DNA of 64,000 bases. Origin: an uncultured Acidobacteriaceae bacterium. Its GTDB lineage: Bacteria; Acidobacteriota; Terriglobia; Terriglobales; Acidobacteriaceae. The stretch is taken from assembly GCA_963747055.1 (NCBI GenBank), contig CAVVDY010000003.1, positions 49,630 through 113,629 on the forward strand. The letters run 5' to 3'. Both the position numbers and the translations under genes were made by a program. Numbering within the stretch: position 1 is the first letter of the stretch; each line of letters opens with the position of its first letter. The notes beneath the pieces are model-generated. The model did no database searches, was not told where the DNA came from, and saw only the letters and a program-made list of their open reading frames with translations. Positions 2,968-58,123 of the stretch are shown here, piece after piece.

Positions 2968-3372
2968 TCAGGGTTTCAGCCACATGATAGGAAAGCCGTG
3001 GCCCAAGCGGCGAAAATCCGAATCGCTGGTGATCAGGGTGGCCTTCATCTCCATGGCGAGCGCGGCGGCGAAGGCGTCAGCGTAGTAGAGTTTGTGGCGT
3101 ACCCTAACGTCAGCGGCCGATAAAGCGCGCTGCCGCGTGGCATCTTCAACGGTAATGCGAAGGGGGTGAAGGGTCGCCAGCACCGAGAGGGCGCGATCGC
3201 GTCCGTACGTGCGCTGTAGAACGGCGAAAACCTCTCCATAGTTCACAGCGGACATATGAAGACCCGCTTGTCCGCGCATCGCCTCTCTCAGGCGCTCCTG
3301 GAGCTTAGCGGCTCCGGGCTTCTTTTCCAGAAGAGCGACGAGCGCGCTGGTGTCGAATACGTAGGTTTTCAT
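2968..3372 (-). CDS. vapC: Type II toxin VapC (PIN-domain RNase)
   Basis: 134 aa. MKTYVFDTSALVALL start with conserved Asp, and C-terminal TSDSDF motif. The stop codon is 1 nt from the start of the downstream oxidase gene. Confidence 0.9.
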   Translation of the reverse strand: MKTYVFDTSALVALLEKKPGAAKLQERLREAMRGQAGLHMSAVNYGEVFAVLQRTYGRDRALSVLATLHPLRITVEDATRQRALSAADVRVRHKLYYADAFAAALAMEMKATLITSDSDFRRLGHGFPIMWLKP

Positions 3373-3665: not shown

Positions 3666-4439
3666 CTAAGACGCCAGCGCTTCGACATACTGTTCGCGAT
3701 TCGACCACACGGCAGGAGTCACGTTGTACGCGTCGAGTGCTTCGATGACGTCTCCTCCGACCTTTTGTTCCTGATCGTTTAAGAATGCGTAAGCTTCCGG
3801 CTCTGAGGTGGCGGCGCGGGCGGCACGCGTGTCGCTAAGAGTCCAAAGATAACCAATGATGTTCTCTTTTCTAGGAGAGCCGATCGCCTGCAAAATTCTC
3901 TCTGGGCGCTTTTTCGATTTTGGAATCAGAAAGTCCACTGCATGATCGTATCCACTCTTGCCCGCGAGTTTTACCCTTGCCGTGTAACGAATATCGTGAC
4001 CGTCAAGAAAGTTCTGCACGTCCTCAAAGAAGAAGCTTGCAACCCTAGGCTGGGCCATCACGAACATGTCATTGACGGCCAGCATGGCCTGCACCAAAGA
4101 ATGCAGGCGCTGAGCGACGTTGCTTGGTGACGCCTCCACGATCAATTGGTTGCTCTCGGCGCGCACACCCAGCCCATTGAGGACGCTGTCAAGCACCATC
4201 TTCCGCTTCGGAGTGTCTACTTCAAGCCCGCTGGTTCTCAGGTCCGAAAGAACATATCCATCATCGGACAAGATAATTGTCCCGTTGCGCCGCGTAGCGT
4301 ACACCTGTAAGTGGTCATTATGCCGGTCTAGGAACGGCGTAGTAAGTTCGCAGACCGCTCCGACATCTTGGACCGACAATCCGCTCCGTAACCAGTCAAT
4401 GTACTCGTTAATAAGCTTCTGGCATTCGTTCCGGTTCAC
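3666..4439 (-). CDS. DUF1828/DUF1829 domain-containing protein (function unknown)
   Basis: 257 aa. The GTG start overlaps the stop of the upstream gene (GTGA). The N-terminal ...TTPFLDRHNDHLQVY...LSDDGYVLSDL... and C-terminal ...GKSGYDHAVDFLIP... segments match my recollection of the DUF1828 + DUF1829 architecture. Confidence 0.7.
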   Translation of the reverse strand: MNRNECQKLINEYIDWLRSGLSVQDVGAVCELTTPFLDRHNDHLQVYATRRNGTIILSDDGYVLSDLRTSGLEVDTPKRKMVLDSVLNGLGVRAESNQLIVEASPSNVAQRLHSLVQAMLAVNDMFVMAQPRVASFFFEDVQNFLDGHDIRYTARVKLAGKSGYDHAVDFLIPKSKKRPERILQAIGSPRKENIIGYLWTLSDTRAARAATSEPEAYAFLNDQEQKVGGDVIEALDAYNVTPAVWSNREQYVEALAS

Positions 4440-4870
4440 ACGATCACCCCCTGAACCGCCGGGGGCGACTCAATCTTACAGAACGTACAAAACTCCTGAA
4501 ATGTGGTGGCAGGGTCGGTCAGCAACGTAAACTGCTTGGGATCGACGGCATATGCCCACCGATCGTCATAACCTTCCTTGAAAAGGTGCAGGTGAGTGCC
4601 GGAGAGGTACCGTCCATCTGGATTTGTGTGAGGCGCACCGTCCACATCAAGCCGCACCAGCACTATCGCAGACCGCGCTCTGTTCTGGAGCTTCAGCTTG
4701 GAAAGACGGAGGGTCCCTCGCCAAACGTCTAGCCAGAACCGTTCCCTGTCGCCAGGGCCTGCCAATTCGTAACTATCGTCAGCGCCTGGCGGAATGGCAA
4801 TCGACGCGGGAGCGCGCAAGAAATGTTTTACCATCGCTATCAGGTCGTCTGCTTCGGATTGGGTCAGCAT
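4436..4870 (-). CDS. Hypothetical 144-aa protein, first gene of a two-gene operon
   Basis: ATG at 4870 (MLTQSEADDLIAMVKHF...). Conserved-looking core LVRLDVDGAPHTNPDG...GTHLHLFKEGY. Translationally coupled to the DUF1828/1829 gene. The family is not confidently recognised (possibly DUF6978-like). Confidence 0.6.
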   Translation of the reverse strand: MLTQSEADDLIAMVKHFLRAPASIAIPPGADDSYELAGPGDRERFWLDVWRGTLRLSKLKLQNRARSAIVLVRLDVDGAPHTNPDGRYLSGTHLHLFKEGYDDRWAYAVDPKQFTLLTDPATTFQEFCTFCKIESPPAVQGVIV

Positions 4871-4955
4871 CGCTTGCAGAATACTCCATAGGACAATGGG
4901 AGAAACATAGAAGCAGAAGTTATTCTTTTTGCTCCCCGGCCCACGGCCCAAAGTC

Positions 4956-4983
4956 AAAACCGGCCGCTGTCGCGGCCGGTTTT
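4956..4983 (-). terminator. Rho-independent terminator (bidirectional-looking)
   Basis: AAAACCGGCCGC-TGTC-GCGGCCGGTTTT perfect hairpin flanked by A and T runs, 23 nt downstream of the radical SAM gene stop. Confidence 0.65.
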
Positions 4984-5005
4984 GACTAATTCTTGTTGCT
5001 CGAAG

Positions 5006-7120
<2,115 letters not shown>

Positions 7121-51801: not shown

Positions 51802-51815
51802 GGGGTAGTGTCCTA
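51802..51815. repeat. Solo copy of the IS1-family terminal repeat core
   Basis: GGGGTAGTGTCCTA is identical (14 of 14) to the outer end of the IRR of the 54478-57627 element plus 2 flanking nt. No partner end was found nearby. Confidence 0.45.
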
Positions 51816-51895: not shown

Positions 51896-52564
51896 ATGCT
51901 GAAAGGCCTCGGGAGGGGTTATTTATTTGTGGCGACACTTCCGGCTCATCGAAACGAACCCGCTATAAAGCGTGTCGTCGCGTTTGTTGACGGCCAGAAC
52001 CTCTACAGATCAGTAAAGGAGTCGTTTGGCTATCATTATCCAAATTACGACGTCTCCAAACTTTCTGAGGCTGTCTGCAAGTCTCGCGGTTGGGATCTAG
52101 TTCAAGTCAGATTTTATACAGGCGTTCCCGACGCAGCTGACGATCCCAGATGGAATCACTTCTGGGTTGGAAAACTCGCGGTTATGGGTAAGTCTGGCAT
52201 TGAAGTGTTTAGCAGGCCGTTGAGATACAGGAACGATAGGGTTGTACTACCCGATGGCACCACGCACACGTTTCTTCGTGGAAGCGAAAAGGGAATCGAT
52301 GTTCGCATTGCGTTGGACGTAATCCGTCTGGCAATTCGCAATGAATACGATATCGCCCTAGTTTTTTCTCAAGACCAAGACCTCTCGGAAGTTGCTGACG
52401 AAATTAGAGCTATCTCAAAGTTGCAGAGCAGATGGATTCATATGGCCTGCGCTTTCCCTGTCAGCCCAACAACCAGGAACAGGAGAGGCATAAACCACAG
52501 CGACTGGATTCAACTGGACCGCAAAATGTACGATGCCTGCATTGATCCGACTGATTACCGCTGA
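51896..52564 (+). CDS. NYN-domain (LabA/DUF88-like, PIN-like fold) putative RNase
   Basis: 222 aa. Acidic-residue motifs VAFVDGQNLY, EKGIDVRIALD and LVFSQDQDL. The segment is visibly AT-richer than its flanks. Confidence 0.75.
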   Translation: MLKGLGRGYLFVATLPAHRNEPAIKRVVAFVDGQNLYRSVKESFGYHYPNYDVSKLSEAVCKSRGWDLVQVRFYTGVPDAADDPRWNHFWVGKLAVMGKSGIEVFSRPLRYRNDRVVLPDGTTHTFLRGSEKGIDVRIALDVIRLAIRNEYDIALVFSQDQDLSEVADEIRAISKLQSRWIHMACAFPVSPTTRNRRGINHSDWIQLDRKMYDACIDPTDYR

Positions 52565-53430: not shown

Positions 53431-54477
53431 ATGTTCTCACCTCTCACGAGATTTGCAGCCATCCCAACAGCGCTTCTGATAGCAGCGGCCATGACCATAG
53501 CGCCGTTTTCATTGGCCGCTCAGACGCCCTCCGCGGCTCATTCACAACCTGGAGCGGCCACCGCTCCCGCCGCACCTGCCGCATCCGCCACCGATCAGAA
53601 TGATTCGACGGGAGGCGATGCCTCCAGTACGATTCGGGTCAACGTCAAGCTGGTCAACGTTTTCGCTACGGTCACCGACCCATCCGGCGCCCCAGTGGGG
53701 TCGCTGAAGGAGGGTGATTTCCAGGTCTTCGAGGACGGTGTGCCGCAGAAGATCGCGATGTTCGCCCGCGAATCAGAATTGCCGCTGTCCATTGTGCTGG
53801 CGATCGACACCAGCCTGAGCACCAAGTCTGACCAGAGACTGGAGCTGGAATCGGCGCGGCGTTTCGCCAGGGACATCCTGCGGCCCATCGATAGCGTGTC
53901 CCTCTTTGAGTTCAGCGAGATCGTCGACCAGCTCACGCCCTTCACCTCCGACTTGCGCGCCATCGACAAAGGGATCTCGCGGGTGCGCACCGGTGCTGCC
54001 ACCGCGCTCTACGACATGCTTTATCTCGGCTCCGACGCGCTCATGCCCCGCCGCGGACGCAAGGTGATGGTGGTGATTACCGACGGTGGCGACACGGTCA
54101 GCAAGGTCAGCTATCAGGAGGCAGTGCGCGAGGCGCAGCAGGCCGAGGTCATCGTCTACAGCATCATCATCGTGCCCATCGAGAACAGTGCCGGTCGCGA
54201 TATTGGCGGTGAGCATGCCCTGATCCAGCTCTCGCGCGACACCGGAGGCAAGTACTACTACGCTAGCGGACTGGACCAGCTTGATTCCGCCTTCCAGAAG
54301 ATCAGCCAGGAACTGCGCACCCAATACCTGATTGCCTATTACCCCGCCCAGCGCCTATCCAGTTCCGACTTCCGTAAGCTCGACATCAAGATCGTCCCTA
54401 ACACTCCCGACTACGCCAACCCTGCGGAGTTACAAGTGCGTCATCGCAGCGGCTATTACACCATGCCTTCCAAGTAG
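53431..54477 (+). CDS. VWA-domain protein of the acidobacterial VWFA-related family
   Basis: 348 aa from ATG 53431. Signal peptide, IRVNVKLVNVFATVTD...FQVFEDGVPQKI N-domain, and VWA MIDAS-like DTSLS...TDGGDT. Confidence 0.85.
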   Translation: MFSPLTRFAAIPTALLIAAAMTIAPFSLAAQTPSAAHSQPGAATAPAAPAASATDQNDSTGGDASSTIRVNVKLVNVFATVTDPSGAPVGSLKEGDFQVFEDGVPQKIAMFARESELPLSIVLAIDTSLSTKSDQRLELESARRFARDILRPIDSVSLFEFSEIVDQLTPFTSDLRAIDKGISRVRTGAATALYDMLYLGSDALMPRRGRKVMVVITDGGDTVSKVSYQEAVREAQQAEVIVYSIIIVPIENSAGRDIGGEHALIQLSRDTGGKYYYASGLDQLDSAFQKISQELRTQYLIAYYPAQRLSSSDFRKLDIKIVPNTPDYANPAELQVRHRSGYYTMPSK

Positions 54478-54501
54478 GGTAGTGTCCTATTACAGAGTTG
54501 C
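54478..54501. repeat. IRL of the IS1-family element
   Basis: GGTAGTGTCCTATTACAGAGTTGC. Confidence 0.8.
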
Positions 54502-54503
54502 TG

Positions 54504-54656
54504 CTAGTAAGATTCCGGGTTGTGCGGTGCAGCTTCAGCAACGACGCAGCGTTCGTGTGCCTCTTGACCGCCCCCAATCACCACGACTCGATCTTCTGGG
54601 GCGATTGGTTCTCGACAGAGAGGGCAAGTCCTCAGTTCCACAACATCGTCATTCAT
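54504..54656 (-). CDS. Passenger gene P4: 50-aa CxxC...HxxC small protein
   Basis: MNDDVVELRTCPLCREPIAPEDRVVVIGGGQEAHERCVVAEAAPHNPESY. AAGAGGTG Shine-Dalgarno overlaps the P3 stop. The P4 stop is 2 nt from the IRL. Confidence 0.5.
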   Translation of the reverse strand: MNDDVVELRTCPLCREPIAPEDRVVVIGGGQEAHERCVVAEAAPHNPESY

Positions 54657-54666
54657 GTAACACCTC

Positions 54667-55350
54667 TTATTCGGCTCGGCGCGCTGTCGGCAGGCTCGCA
54701 ATAACATCAGTCTCGTACTCCTGCAAGAACTGAATGTGCAGATCGGTCGGCAACGGGGCTTCTGAAAAGTACTTGTGTTCGGAGAACGGAACCTCGACCC
54801 TCCGGGAGATTGTGAACGACGCAATATTATTTTTCCTGGACAGCGGATCATGGCCAACGCCTGTGAATAAGGGATAGTACTGCACTGGGCTTTTCCAAAT
54901 GTCGGAGACTACAGAATTGACCTTACCCGCCAAATTAGCTAACGGAGTCGTTTGGAGAATGTCGAAATCCGATGTGAATGTAAGGTCGCTCACGTATGCC
55001 CACTGGCGGACAATTTCAGACAACGGCCTGAGTCCAAAAACGGAAGTTGCCCAAGCGGATATGTCGTCAAGAATAGCCCGCGACTCGTTCGTGTTAGATC
55101 GGGTTTCGACAGCCAAAATTTGGCTAAAAATCGTGAGCTTGTGAATCACGATTGTTCCGGCTAGACCCTCTTCAAATACAATTCCCTTGCTCTCGTCCAC
55201 GTCAAGGAATGACGTTGGGAATTTCTGAAACTGATAGCGTTCCACCAGTTTCGCAATAAAGTGCGGGTAAAAAACCGACCCCTGAAAATCTAGGTCGTTT
55301 GTTTCAGCGAACGCTAGCACTCTCGCCAAAACCACCGCGGATAATTTCAT
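54667..55350 (-). CDS. Passenger gene P3: 227-aa protein of unknown function
   Basis: ATG 55350 with AAGGGGG 8 nt upstream. No signal peptide or TM helix, and no family or motif recognised. Confidence 0.6.
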   Translation of the reverse strand: MKLSAVVLARVLAFAETNDLDFQGSVFYPHFIAKLVERYQFQKFPTSFLDVDESKGIVFEEGLAGTIVIHKLTIFSQILAVETRSNTNESRAILDDISAWATSVFGLRPLSEIVRQWAYVSDLTFTSDFDILQTTPLANLAGKVNSVVSDIWKSPVQYYPLFTGVGHDPLSRKNNIASFTISRRVEVPFSEHKYFSEAPLPTDLHIQFLQEYETDVIASLPTARRAE

Positions 55351-55903
55351 CGCGAACCCCCTTGGATAACAGCTCGTATGGAATGCCCTCTTCTTGCTTC
55401 GGAAACACGAGAAGCTCGCCGCGCTTACCCGATGCCGCAACATCGGCCGGCGCCTTTCTTGTATTTTCGATCTTTTCTTCGGTGCGCACGGGAGGCTTCT
55501 TTGGAATGACTACAGCTTGAGACGCTTGTTGTTTCTGCGATCCGCGCTCTTCCCGTTCCATCTCAAACGATTTAAGATTTTCTAGGCCCTCTCCGATCTT
55601 TTCTGCCCATTTCAAAAACTCGGAGTATGTCACGAGTTGTGGGATGAACGCCAAATCGAGTCCAGAAGCTATACGAATACCCGTGTTAAACGTAAGGTTC
55701 CCGTAATTCGGATCCTCGGCGCGAGAGATCACGCCTTGGTCGATCTTGGCCGCATCCGCTAGGTCGTCTTGGGACATCTTTCGGCCCTTGCGAAGCGTTC
55801 TTACTTGAAGGGAGAAGGCCCGTTTCGCGACGGCCCCCGCGTATTCCTCTCGAAACTCTTTGCTTTCGGCAAACTTACTCCACAGGTCACTTGAAAAACT
55901 CAT
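55304..55903 (-). CDS. Passenger gene P2: XRE-family HTH protein (HigA-like antitoxin candidate) with long C-terminal extension
   Basis: ATG 55903 overlaps the P1 3' end by 17 nt. HTH segment RKMSQDDLADAAKIDQGVISRAE, plus about 100 extra C-terminal residues. Confidence 0.75.
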   Translation of the reverse strand: MSFSSDLWSKFAESKEFREEYAGAVAKRAFSLQVRTLRKGRKMSQDDLADAAKIDQGVISRAEDPNYGNLTFNTGIRIASGLDLAFIPQLVTYSEFLKWAEKIGEGLENLKSFEMEREERGSQKQQASQAVVIPKKPPVRTEEKIENTRKAPADVAASGKRGELLVFPKQEEGIPYELLSKGVRDEIIRGGFGESASVR

Positions 55904-56345
55904 CGACTGTACCCCGTCCTTGTCCATACCACTTCCTAAGACGATGTGCCTCACTATATGCGTTTGGTGGTATTGGCACCCTTCCGCTCTTTTCTAATCC
56001 ATTCAGCAGAACGAACTCATGCCCATCAGCAGGCCAAATACCCAAACACCTTAGTTGGCGCTTAATCTGCTTCTTCCCTTCCTGACGAATCACCTCAAAG
56101 CGAACCTCTCCGAGTCCTGCACCCACTCCGGTTAACGGGCTAAATTCTTCTACCTCTGGGTCTTCCCAATCAGGAGTTCCTCTAAGGGTCGTAATGGCCG
56201 CGTAGAACTGCGCTACCACCTTTGTGTCTTGAGTCTGAAGCCATTCCCTCAGGGGCGCAGTTCTCCGTCCATGCTCATCGGGCTCTTCGGCGTATACAAG
56301 GAATCTCCACAGAGGCATGTTAAGCCGATTCAAGAAATTATGCAA
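55887..56345 (-). CDS. Passenger gene P1: Gp49/HigB-like RelE/ParE-superfamily toxin candidate
   Basis: ...GLGEVRFEVIRQEGKKQIKRQLRCLGIWPADGHEFVLLNGLEKSGRVPIPPNAYSEAHRLRKWY matches the phage Gp49-like (DUF891) pattern. The start is TTG 56345 (Shine-Dalgarno AAGAGGTG) or ATG 56318. Confidence 0.7.
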   Translation of the reverse strand: MHNFLNRLNMPLWRFLVYAEEPDEHGRRTAPLREWLQTQDTKVVAQFYAAITTLRGTPDWEDPEVEEFSPLTGVGAGLGEVRFEVIRQEGKKQIKRQLRCLGIWPADGHEFVLLNGLEKSGRVPIPPNAYSEAHRLRKWYGQGRGTVDEFFK

Positions 56346-56389
56346 TATTACATTTCACCTCTTGACTAGCTACATGTAATATTGCATAA
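56338..56389. promoter_or_regulatory. Perfect 16-bp inverted repeat, candidate operator of the passenger operon
   Basis: TTATGCAATATTACAT (56338-56353) and ATGTAATATTGCATAA (56374-56389) are separated by 20 nt containing the Shine-Dalgarno sequence. The repeat overlaps the P1 start codon. Confidence 0.5.
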
Positions 56390-56391
56390 TT

Positions 56392-56420
56392 TTCATATGC
56401 TTAAGAAAGCAAAAGGCCAA
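56392..56420 (-). promoter_or_regulatory. Possible sigma-70-type promoter of the passenger operon
   Basis: The minus strand reads TTGGCC - 17 nt - TATGAA directly upstream of the inverted repeat. This is a pattern match only. Confidence 0.3.
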
Positions 56421-56464
56421 CAGCCCCGAGTCGAAAAACTTGGAACTGCTGGCCTAGTCCTTGT

Positions 56465-56539
56465 GGGGCTATCCACGGGGGCGCGAGTCTCGCCTTGACA
56501 TGCCGGCTCGCGGTCGGTTCAATCCCGACTGGCTCCACC
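56465..56539 (+). other. tRNA/tmRNA-like acceptor-stem + T-arm module (not a canonical tRNA)
   Basis: GGGGCTA...TGGCTCC 7-bp acceptor pairing with G3:U70, T-arm GTCGG-TTCAATC-CCGAC, discriminator A and then CC. The interior does not fold into D and anticodon arms. Confidence 0.35.
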
Positions 56540-56667
56540 GTTGAATAAGCGCCCAACCCGTAGCTGGTAACCGCGAGCTGGGCCTTGCCTCTGGTTGGTG
56601 CCCAAAGGCAGGGTTTCGACACCCACTGTCATTTTGGGCCGCTTTCCAGAAGAAAGCAAGGCTGAAA

Positions 56668-57615
56668 ATGACATGTCACAATTGCCAAACTGAGTGCAAG
56701 CGGTTCGGCAAGAACAAAGCGGGTCATCAACGTTTCCGCTGTCGCCAGTGCTCCCGCACATTCACCGAATCAGGCCCGCGTCCATTAGGCGAGATGCGCC
56801 TGCCTCTAGATCGCCCACTGCTCTGCCTGCAATTGTTGCTTGAGGGAAACTCCGTTCGCAGCACAGAACGCATCGTAGGCGTGCATCGTGACACGAGTTC
56901 TCGCGCTGCTGGAAGTAGCCGGACTGAGAGCCGAGAAACTCCTGCGAGATCGTATCCGCGATGTGCGGGTGAGAGATGTGGAGTGTGATGAAATTTGGGG
57001 ATGGGTCGGGATGAAGGAGAAGAACAAAACCATCGACACCGACCTGCTCGGGGATGCCTATTGCTTTGTGGGGATGGAGCGCAACACGAAGCTCATACTC
57101 GCTTGGCATCTTGGACGGCGCACCGCTAGCGACACGCGCCTGTTTATGGAGATGCTTCGGGAGGCTACTGCTGGGCGCTTCCAATTGACCACAGATGGGT
57201 TTTATCCCTATCCGAATGCTGTAGAGCGCAGCTTCGGAATCGACGTGGATTACGCGCAAATGCAGAAAGTCTACGCGGCTGCGCGGGATGGCGAACAGCG
57301 TTACTCACCAGCGGAGGTTGTCGATGTCCAGGTCGTTCCCAAGATCGGGATGCCGGATTTCGAACGCATTTGCACCTCGCACATCGGGAGACAGAACCCT
57401 TTCAATTAGGATGGGGATGCGGAGAATGACAAGGCTCACAAACGCATTCTCTTCTCAAAGAAGCGGGCGAACCTAAAGTATGCGTTTGCGCTTTGGTTCG
57501 CGTTCTACAATTTCTCTCGGGTGCATCGGTCGCTTGAGTGACGCCTGCAATGGAGAGCGGATTGACCGGTCACCCGTGGTCCCTTGCGGAATTAATCGGG
57601 GCGGCAACTCCGTAA
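56668..57615 (+). pseudogene. IS1-family transposase, interrupted by four single-nucleotide frameshifts
   Basis: Zn-finger N-terminus CHNCQTECKRFGKNKAGHQRFRCRQCSRTF. DDE region DEIWGWV, TDGFYPYPNAV, RQN(L)SIRMGMRRMTRLTNAFS, and LKYAFALWFAFYNFSRVHRSL-VTPAMESGLTGHPWSLAELI. Frame changes occur near 56895, 57395, 57458 and 57538. The TAA stop lies inside the IRR. Confidence 0.8.
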
Positions 57616-57627
57616 TAGGACACTACC
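57604..57627. repeat. IRR of the IS1-family element
   Basis: GCAACTCCGTAATAGGACACTACC is the reverse complement of the IRL with one mismatch. Confidence 0.8.
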
Positions 57628-58123
57628 CCAAGTAGGACCTTGGCGATGAAAACATGGCGGACACGAATCCGCCGGCAAGACAAACTTCTGGAACTTTGCG
57701 GAGAAAAATTGAGAAGAGAAGGCAGAGAAACAGCAGCCGCTCGCGAGGCCCGGATGTAATCTAAACAAGCAACCGAGCCTCAGCCGATTTACAGGACCCC
57801 CAAGTCCCGAATCTGTCGAGCGTTTCGCTTTTGAGCGCCGACAACCCCGAAAGTTGGCCGCAACCCAAACTAGTAGACTCCATTGCACGCCGGCTACCAC
57901 GCGTTCGAGCGACCTAACTGCTTTATTTGCAATGAGGCTATAGCCGCCCGACCGGGCTTATCTCTCGATTTCTGTAGTTGGCAGCTCTCTCGACTACAAC
58001 TTCTGGGAGCCTGACGTTCGTTCTGTCGGCTCCCAGGCTGCCCTTCAAGCGCCTTCTGCGGTAAACTGGCGCGCACGTCGAACGCCGAGCGGGTCGACCA
58101 CCAGCGAGGAAAAGGATGATTTC

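Follow-up and report, generated by a model that had tools for sequence, protein, structure and literature searches.

The 64,000-nt stretch of DNA analysed here (hereafter the window), from an uncultured Acidobacteriaceae bacterium (assembly GCA_963747055.1, contig CAVVDY010000003.1), contained a 3150-bp mobile element (positions 54478-57627) that had inserted by transposition at the stop codon of a gene for a VWA-domain protein. Taken as a whole, the element is very probably a passenger-carrying copy of an IS1-family insertion sequence (IS), with a decayed transposase gene, a toxin-antitoxin (TA)-like cargo and a regulated leader on its transposase transcript. Cargo made up ~59% of the element, the leader ~10% and the transposase gene ~30%, and cargo was constant across the element's family, in keeping with an earlier sequence-only reading of this DNA that had called the element a passenger-carrying IS consisting mostly of cargo.

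Insertion site, family and transposase

The two ends of the element were marked by 24-bp inverted repeats (IRs), GGTAGTGTCCTATTACAGAGTTGC and GGTAGTGTCCTATTACGGAGTTGC, at the positions given by the sequence-only reading. These were the only two matches at ≤3 mismatches in the window, with none expected (100 shuffles), and a repeat finder lengthened the pair to 28 nt with 93% complementarity. A perfect 8-bp CCAAGTAG abutted both ends; by arithmetic, an exact 8-mer match would arise by chance at a given position with a probability of ~1.5e-5. The GC content of the element was ~0.49-0.57, compared with 0.59-0.63 in the upstream flank and 0.61-0.66 from position 58000 onwards, so that the reading was also right in describing a 3150-bp segment richer in AT than both flanks. 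It had further proposed that the 8-bp repeat came from a true insertion and contained the stop codon of the upstream gene, and had suggested looking for the empty site in related genomes. The open reading frame (ORF) upstream of the element encoded a VWA-domain protein (Pfam VWA/VWA_2) ending in ...PSK-TAG, with the stop codon inside the left copy of the target site duplication (TSD). Among the close homologues returned by a protein search with the VWA product, two were located on long contigs (L083 and L084; VWA 92% identical) that were syntenic with the window (gene order NYN-MoaE-VWA-glyoxalase-PurH). As predicted, the VWA gene of both ended in ...ACCATGCCTTCCAAGTAGGACCTTGCGG..., with one CCAAGTAG and no element, and 493 nt separated the VWA stop codon from the glyoxalase start, compared with 3646 nt in the window (= 488 + 3150 + 8). 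Given this single-copy empty site in two syntenic sister genomes, the window element is the product of a genuine transposition event. The same empty sites mark the TAG stop codon as native and as part of the duplicated target, and since the stop was duplicated along with the target, the encoded VWA protein is unaffected.

A scan of a genome collection (one genome per species) with the 24-nt IR as query returned only one locus, L001, in an uncultured Acidobacteriaceae metagenome-assembled genome (MAG). This sister element was 3018 bp long, its IRs matched those of the window at 21/24 positions, and it was flanked by its own perfect 8-bp TSD, GGGCGTGG. It encoded an intact 313-aa transposase and shared 79% nt identity with window positions 56443-57627 (1190 nt); its cargo was not alignable to the window cargo at DNA level. 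A scan of metagenomes with the L001 transposase gave at least 566 relatives, most of them of peat or soil origin; 80 were retrieved for study, their element ends being located by a terminus-motif search. The terminus GGTAGTGTCCTA...GTTGC was conserved across the family. Complete elements numbered 40 (34 distinct) and were 2.6-4.8 kb long, with perfect 8-bp TSDs in 31 and perfect 9-bp TSDs in seven, at unrelated target sites. Soil and peat Acidobacteriota are home to a large family of elements with conserved termini and 8- or 9-bp duplications, and extra ORFs (passengers) were present in every complete element (40/40). Passenger-carrying IS have been recognised in several IS families (PMC7986276). 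With three or four cargo ORFs between the IRs, and with architecture and TSDs repeated at many unrelated sites, members of this family are, judged by their gene content, all 'transporter IS' (tIS) in the sense of Varani et al. (PMC7986276).

The family also carried other passengers, among them an HNH endonuclease in L003 (element positions 215-475), several uncharacterised membrane-like proteins, a proteasome-subunit-like protein in L069 and, in clades L021-L081, P63C-domain proteins of ~350-410 aa (cluster c3, 16 elements). Two loci (L024 124-3315 and L025 844-4035) held identical 3192-bp elements that shared a right flank and differed in their left flanks, with a TSD present in L024 and none in L025, a pattern that could have arisen from recombination between two copies or from an assembly chimera.

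The sequence-only reading had assigned the element to the IS1 family, and the assignment held. NCBIfam NF033558 ('IS1 family transposase') was the top match of the repaired window protein (91 bits, cut-off 100), Pfam DDE_Tnp_IS1 was matched above its gathering threshold, Zn_ribbon_InsA was matched too, and plasmid relatives of the transposase, ~25-44% identical, are annotated as IS1 family. The order of an N-terminal Zn-finger, a helix-turn-helix (HTH) and an IS1-type DDE domain is that of IS1 transposases, at a borderline family score; transposases of intact relatives reached 94-106 bits on NF033558, two of them above the cut-off. This borderline match points to a divergent, single-ORF branch of the IS1 family. 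The closest type in the ISfinder classification is presumably the single-ORF, ISMhu11-like branch of IS1; no paper on ISMhu11 was found in our literature search. No recombinase ORF was found in the element, whose only transposase was of the IS1 type.

The reading had also called the element intact-looking, which was correct for the ends (IRs and TSD) and incorrect for the interior, where the transposase gene was frameshifted four times, although its mention of a repaired transposase had hinted at a pseudogene. It had recognised neither what kind of cargo the element carried nor the tRNA-like unit in the leader. Relative to the intact L001 orthologue, the indels were +1 at 56897, +1 at 57397, +5 at 57453 and -1 at 57534, and the conserved SHIERQN motif read SHIGRQN, an E to G change by which the catalytic glutamate is probably lost. 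Of the four indels, just one lay at a homopolymer run, and the neighbouring host genes in the window were long clean ORFs; assembly error was rejected on these two grounds, which argue for genuine decay. Intact relatives had one continuous transposase ORF of 308-313 aa (313 aa in L001). An insA/insB' pair with a programmed -1 frameshift was not found, the intact relatives being single-ORF and the window breaks having no slippery-site arrangement. Perfect ends and TSD, together with a repaired protein that differed from its L001 orthologue at only ~13% of residues (dN/dS 0.056), could suggest an intact autonomous IS whose frame breaks are sequencing errors or programmed frameshifts, and classical IS1 does use one programmed -1 frameshift (PMC3196728). 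However, four separate indels in both directions, one of them of 5 bp, the uninterrupted ORF of intact relatives, the probable loss of the catalytic Glu and neighbouring genes that speak against an indel-ridden assembly make autonomy extremely improbable. The window copy would rather be non-autonomous, mobile only if a related transposase were to act in trans on its intact ends.

A third exact copy of the terminus GGTAGTGTCCTA was located at window positions 51804-51815, 90 bp upstream of the NYN-domain gene (window 51896-52564), which had a low GC content of 0.48; no partner IR for this terminus was found. In L083, a fuller IR, GGTAGTGTCCTACATCTGCGTTGATG, was situated ahead of the NYN gene (3124-3149), at a place equivalent to 51804-51815 in the window. 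The 51804-51815 terminus is probably the solo end, or a remnant, of an earlier member of this family, one that had carried the NYN gene.

Cargo operon and divergent promoter

Within the subclade of the window element, comprising elements with at least 68% transposase identity, all cargo genes were upstream of the transposase gene, were read away from it and followed a fixed order, which was common to 10 subclade elements. The first cargo protein was ~130-160 aa across the subclade and in L001, L005 and L013 matched Pfam Gp49 (PF05973; HigB/RelE-type toxins). Its window counterpart, orf152, had no direct match in Pfam, NCBIfam or PADLOC, a PDB profile search was empty, and its AlphaFold2 (AF2) model (pLDDT 46) was too poor for fold comparison; the toxin assignment of orf152 therefore rests on profile-profile similarity and gene position. 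Aligned with hhalign, the orf152 family (A6) matched sister proteins from the same position (A7) with 95.8% probability (E 7.7e-9), and three of the eight A7 members matched PF05973. The second gene, overlapping orf152 by 17 nt, encoded an HTH protein with weak NCBIfam matches to Y4mF/HipB-type antitoxins and 36% identity to its L001 counterpart (E 2e-13), making it a candidate antitoxin or repressor.

The third gene of subclade elements (L001-L018) encoded either a DUF3467-like protein of ~110-137 aa or a domainless protein of ~222 aa, the window having the second type (orf227). The orf227 family, found also in elements L005, L015 and L017, comprised 397 homologues, all unannotated and from Terriglobia sources, with no Pfam domain. 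Single-sequence and profile searches of PDB sequences with orf227 gave no match, and a Foldseek comparison of its AF2 model (pLDDT 63) with the PDB gave a best E of 6.6e-3 at a TM-score <0.4, so no fold was assigned. By hhalign the DUF3467-like and orf227 families were unrelated. The type of third gene assorted independently of toxin and HTH type, a pattern that would imply modular exchange within the cargo operon. Between the left IR and orf227 was a 51-aa ORF, like orf227 without a match in NCBIfam or PADLOC, whose DNA sequence was not conserved in L085, the closest relative, and for which L005, L015 and L017 offer no space; its status as a gene is uncertain.

The closest relatives of the window cargo were L085 and L086, in which cargo plus leader were 83% identical to the window at nt level. 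Values of dN/dS between the window and L086 were 0.08 for orf152, 0.22 for the HTH gene and 0.19 for orf227, which places the cargo genes under purifying selection even though the transposase is dead. The L085 unit (4359-6716 of ENA ERZ25039496 contig_8618) was at another locus of a MAG having the empty VWA site (L085 vs L082). No right IR was found for it, and on its transposase side a fragment matched the first 88 aa at 39% identity, the DDE part being lost. By this structure L085 is a cargo-plus-leader unit whose transposase it has outlived.

Cargo operon and transposase gene diverged from a shared promoter region. Paired repeats of 16-19 nt, 33-46 nt apart, were found at the equivalent position in every sister element, and their sequence type tracked the HTH type. 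The repeats are likely operators that place both divergent transcripts under the control of the HTH protein. An overlapping XRE-HTH gene downstream of a toxin candidate, with a palindrome over the promoter, is the arrangement of type II TA genes, and we put the chances as even that the cargo is a TA-like stabilisation module autoregulated through the palindrome.

A tRNA-like unit in the transposase leader

Between the promoter and the transposase ATG, ~270 nt were conserved and structured on the transposase strand (Table 1). At the centre of this leader was a tRNA-like unit with a 7-bp acceptor stem (GGGGCUA/UGGCUCC) including G3·U70, a mini D-hairpin of three pairs with GG in its loop, a long middle arm, a canonical T-arm (GUCGG-UUCAAUC-CCGAC), and A73 followed by CC. 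Across 15 members, standard pairs filled 91% of pair cells compared with 45-58% in controls slid by 1-3 columns, and compensatory changes were present in 13/20 pairs; the observed values were reached by 0/500 shuffles. The third acceptor pair was G·U in 15/15 members, and this invariance fixes the strand. G3·U70 together with A73 is the identity set of alanyl-tRNA synthetase (AlaRS), common to tRNA-Ala and transfer-messenger RNA (tmRNA). With a covariance model built from these sequences, the window unit scored 82 bits and the unit was recovered in 20 loci besides, at 60-89 bits and on the strand of the transposase gene; in 13 loci (strict pattern) its 3' end was 128-133 nt before the transposase ATG.

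Acceptor and T-arm sequences were nearly identical between the host tRNA-Ala and the element's copies, yet the genuine host tRNA-Ala scored only 40 bits with the covariance model. Though the 7-bp acceptor stem and a T-arm with TΨC-type loop are those of a cloverleaf, the middle arm had at least 8 bp and an internal loop, and there was neither a standard D-arm nor a 5-bp anticodon stem with 7-nt loop. ARAGORN and Rfam (gathering threshold; E up to 1) made no call for the window unit. Because the middle arm is too long for an anticodon arm and both programs were silent, the unit is best read as a mimic derived from tRNA-Ala and not as a decoding tRNA. A decoding or suppressor tRNA in the window was rejected, since a middle arm of such length and variability could not position an anticodon. 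ARAGORN likewise found no tmRNA, the 75-nt tRNA-like unit being without an mRNA-like domain. The variant in L017 and L019 was called 'tRNA-Gln' by ARAGORN, the sole variant of the unit to be called. The unit was intact both in the window, with its dead transposase, and in L085 (77 bits), with only a transposase fragment.

L033 and L040 belong to two clades more distant from the window. Upstream of the transposase in L033 (1682-1769), ARAGORN called a class-II tRNA of the ochre-suppressor type, with UUA as its anticodon and ACCA at its end, and at the equivalent position in L040 (5800-5874) it called a near-canonical tRNA-Asn(GUU). The presence of different tRNAs at this equivalent position suggests repeated origin or capture of a tRNA-shaped unit ahead of the transposase gene.

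Table 1. Positions in the window of the features of the element, in order along the DNA
Feature	Positions	Strand	Evidence or remarks
Left TSD copy, CCAAGTAG	54470..54477	.	Read directly; holds native TAG stop of VWA gene
Left terminal inverted repeat (IRL), GGTAGTGTCCTATTACAGAGTTGC	54478..54501	+	24 bp
Small 51-aa ORF, CPLC...HERC (CxxC...HxxC, Zn-ribbon-like)	54504..54659	-	Zinc-finger matches weak, E 0.04-0.07
Cargo gene 3, orf227 (family ~222 aa)	54667..55350	-	Overlaps HTH gene by 47 nt
Cargo gene 2, XRE-type HTH, ~100-aa C-terminal tail	55304..55903	-	Pfam HTH_3/HTH_19
Cargo gene 1, orf152/143 aa, HigB/Gp49-like toxin candidate	55887..56318	-	First operon gene
Putative divergent promoter/operator	56335..56392	.	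Perfect 19-bp inverted repeat AAATTATGCAATATTACAT-N20-ATGTAATATTGCATAATTT
Sigma-70-like promoter TTGACT-17-CATAAT, transposase strand	56362-56390	+	-10 box within right palindrome arm
Leader hairpin P0 (AGGCCA...TGGCCT)	56414..56455	+	Six conserved pairs, one covarying A-U/G-C
tRNA-Ala-derived tRNA-like element, 75 nt	56465..56539	+	Covariation; covariance model 82 bits
Leader hairpins P1-P3	56551..56624	+	Three, conserved, with compensatory changes
Start-codon stem TGTCATTTTGGGCC/GGCTGAAAATGACA	56627..56673	+	Both arms conserved; encloses Shine-Dalgarno region GAAAGCAAGG, buries ATG 56668
IS1-family transposase pseudogene	56668..57615	+	Homology to intact L001 orthologue; four indels
Right terminal inverted repeat (IRR), GGTAGTGTCCTATTACGGAGTTGC	57604..57627	-	24 bp; overlaps transposase gene 3' end
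Right TSD copy, CCAAGTAG	57628..57635	.	Read directly

Proposed function, alternatives and significance

An IS1-type DDE transposase once recognised the 24-28-bp IRs and, through a staggered cut of 8 bp at the target, integrated the 3150-bp unit, after which the transposase gene of this copy decayed by its four indels. The three overlapping cargo genes probably form an addiction or stabilisation module, by which the element, or the replicon carrying it, would be maintained in the population. The HTH protein probably binds the 19-bp palindrome over the back-to-back promoters, which would co-regulate the cargo operon and the transposase transcript. On the transposase side, the ~270-nt leader may limit transposase synthesis, with its terminal stem predicted to bury the start codon, and we consider it fairly likely that such sequestration keeps transposase output low. 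We predict that host enzymes of tRNA maturation, possibly RNase P, process the tRNA-Ala-derived module, and cleavage there would separate the transposase mRNA from its 5' end. That the mimic serves as a substrate for tRNA-processing enzymes and in this way uncouples or destabilises the transposase mRNA is possible, with the balance of probability somewhat against it. Doubtful, too, is the broader proposal that the module is a functional RNA, processed and possibly alanylated by host tRNA enzymes, that gates the transposase or works with a ribosome-targeting toxin.

Several observations weigh against parts of this explanation. The module was kept in L085 after loss of the DDE part, so that its role may lie with the cargo and not with transposase control, and most of the more distant clades had no recognisable tRNA-like module. 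Sequence, profile and fold searches of the PDB, and 397 homologues, gave orf227 no detectable relative of known function; orf152 was without a direct Pfam, NCBIfam or PADLOC match and had an AF2 pLDDT of 46. The IS1 assignment itself was borderline by the curated NCBI cut-off of 100 bits (91 for the window, 94-106 for intact relatives).

The tRNA-like sequence might instead be a passive relic, a tRNA-Ala fragment or integrase attachment site captured with the cargo and without function. Fragments of tRNA 3' ends are common in genomic islands, acceptor stem and T-arm closely resemble those of host tRNA-Ala, and neither ARAGORN nor Rfam recognised a tRNA. Yet a relic should not be a full 5'-to-3' unit of tRNA size, with compensatory changes in 13/20 pairs and 91% of cells paired (45-58% in slid controls), nor hold a fixed position before the ATG in 13 loci although the cargo is not alignable at DNA level; there is also no integrase in the element, and the unit stayed intact in copies with dead or truncated transposase genes, all of which makes a relic very unlikely. 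Alternatively, the RNA could be a partner of the cargo, for example a decoy or rescue RNA chargeable with alanine and tied to what the ribosome-dependent toxin does, or an RNA antitoxin. RelE/HigB-type toxins create stalled ribosomes that need tmRNA, the AlaRS identity set was present with its G·U pair invariant in 15/15 members, and the module was kept with the cargo in L085/L086 where the DDE domain has gone. Against such a partnership, which we regard as quite unlikely, the unit shares the strand of the transposase gene, follows the transposase-side promoter and keeps a fixed spacing to the ATG, it has no mRNA-like domain, and no experimental precedent was found in our literature search.

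For the cargo itself, the alternative to an addiction module is an anti-phage defence or abortive-infection system. A three-gene set with an uncharacterised third component, swapped between two families independently of toxin and antitoxin type, would suit a defence system, as would weak matches of the HTH protein to PADLOC control-protein and CapH models and the phage-related P63C and HNH proteins of other clades. But neither orf152 nor orf227 matched a PADLOC system protein, and the best-supported similarity was to Gp49/HigB-HigA TA pairs, so that we consider defence unlikely. Toxin-antitoxin-chaperone (TAC) systems of the HigB-HigA-SecB-like type consist of a toxin, an HTH antitoxin and a third gene. 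The window cargo resembles them, by analogy only, in having a toxin candidate, a long-tailed HTH antitoxin candidate and a third gene in overlapping frames, but orf227 and its DUF3467-like alternatives had no sequence or fold similarity to SecB or any solved structure. The idea that gene 3 is a SecB-like chaperone was unsupported, the DUF3467-like profile having no PDB match and being unrelated to orf227, and DUF3467 appeared in our literature search in one incidental mention only.

With the IS1 family the element shares a Zn-finger-HTH-DDE transposase, IRs of 24-28 bp starting GGT and TSDs of 8-9 bp, and with the single-ORF IS1 branch a one-ORF transposase in intact members and a length of several kb with passenger genes. 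It differs from annotated plasmid IS1-family elements in its transposase (~25-44% identical), from classical IS1 in the lack of an insA/insB' frameshift across its family, and from the IS1 family in having passengers in every complete element examined and a long structured leader with a tRNA-like module. The nearest documented parallel to the cargo is in Tn3-family transposons, which carry Gp49/HTH_37 TA pairs beside divergent promoters; it has been proposed that such pairs are integral to the transposition module, stabilise the element and are coupled to transposase expression (Lima-Mendez et al. 2020, PMC7157771). The present element is similar in its pair of a Gp49/HigB-like toxin candidate, placed first, and an HTH protein next to a divergent promoter region that also drives the transposase. 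It differs from Tn3 in its IS1-type DDE transposase of ~313 aa (Tn3 TnpA, ~1000 aa), in having no resolvase or res site, and in its third cargo gene and tRNA-like leader; Tn3 TSDs are 5 bp, compared with 8-9 bp in this family, and Tn3 IRs are 38 bp.

The tRNA-like unit shares with tRNA-Ala and the tRNA-like domain of tmRNA an acceptor with G3·U70, A73, a canonical T-arm and a reduced D region with GG. Unlike tmRNA it has no mRNA-like domain, tag ORF or pseudoknots, and unlike tRNA-Ala it has a middle arm of at least 8 bp with an internal loop and is embedded in the mRNA leader of a transposable element. In IS10 and IS50, transposase mRNA is under translational fold-back control, in which outside-end sequence pairs in read-through transcripts. 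There, as here, the transposase start codon is sequestered in a stem together with its ribosome-binding region, whereas the present stem belongs to a ~270-nt leader with several covarying hairpins. No paper on tRNA-like leaders in IS elements was found in our literature search.

A passenger-carrying IS1-family element is of a kind already known, and its insertion here was routine and harmless to the neighbouring gene. A small DDE IS that has both obligate TA-like cargo at its divergent promoter and a tRNA-Ala mimic in its transposase leader is a combination not found in the literature searched. The significance of the window copy lies in the family that it revealed, whose IS1-like elements number in the hundreds in Acidobacteriota of soil and peat and are never without cargo; one subclade of these elements joins a TA-like operon to a tRNA-shaped RNA within the transposase transcript. 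The idea of a TA module integral to the transposition unit would thereby extend from Tn3 transposons to small DDE insertion sequences. RNAs encoded by IS, such as the bridge RNA of IS110 and the omega RNA of IS200/IS605, are now reshaping views of transposon biology, and the leader described here offers a clean case of a covariation-supported tRNA mimic inside a transposase leader. Should the mimic indeed be functional, the family would be one of DDE-type IS dependent on tRNA mimicry.

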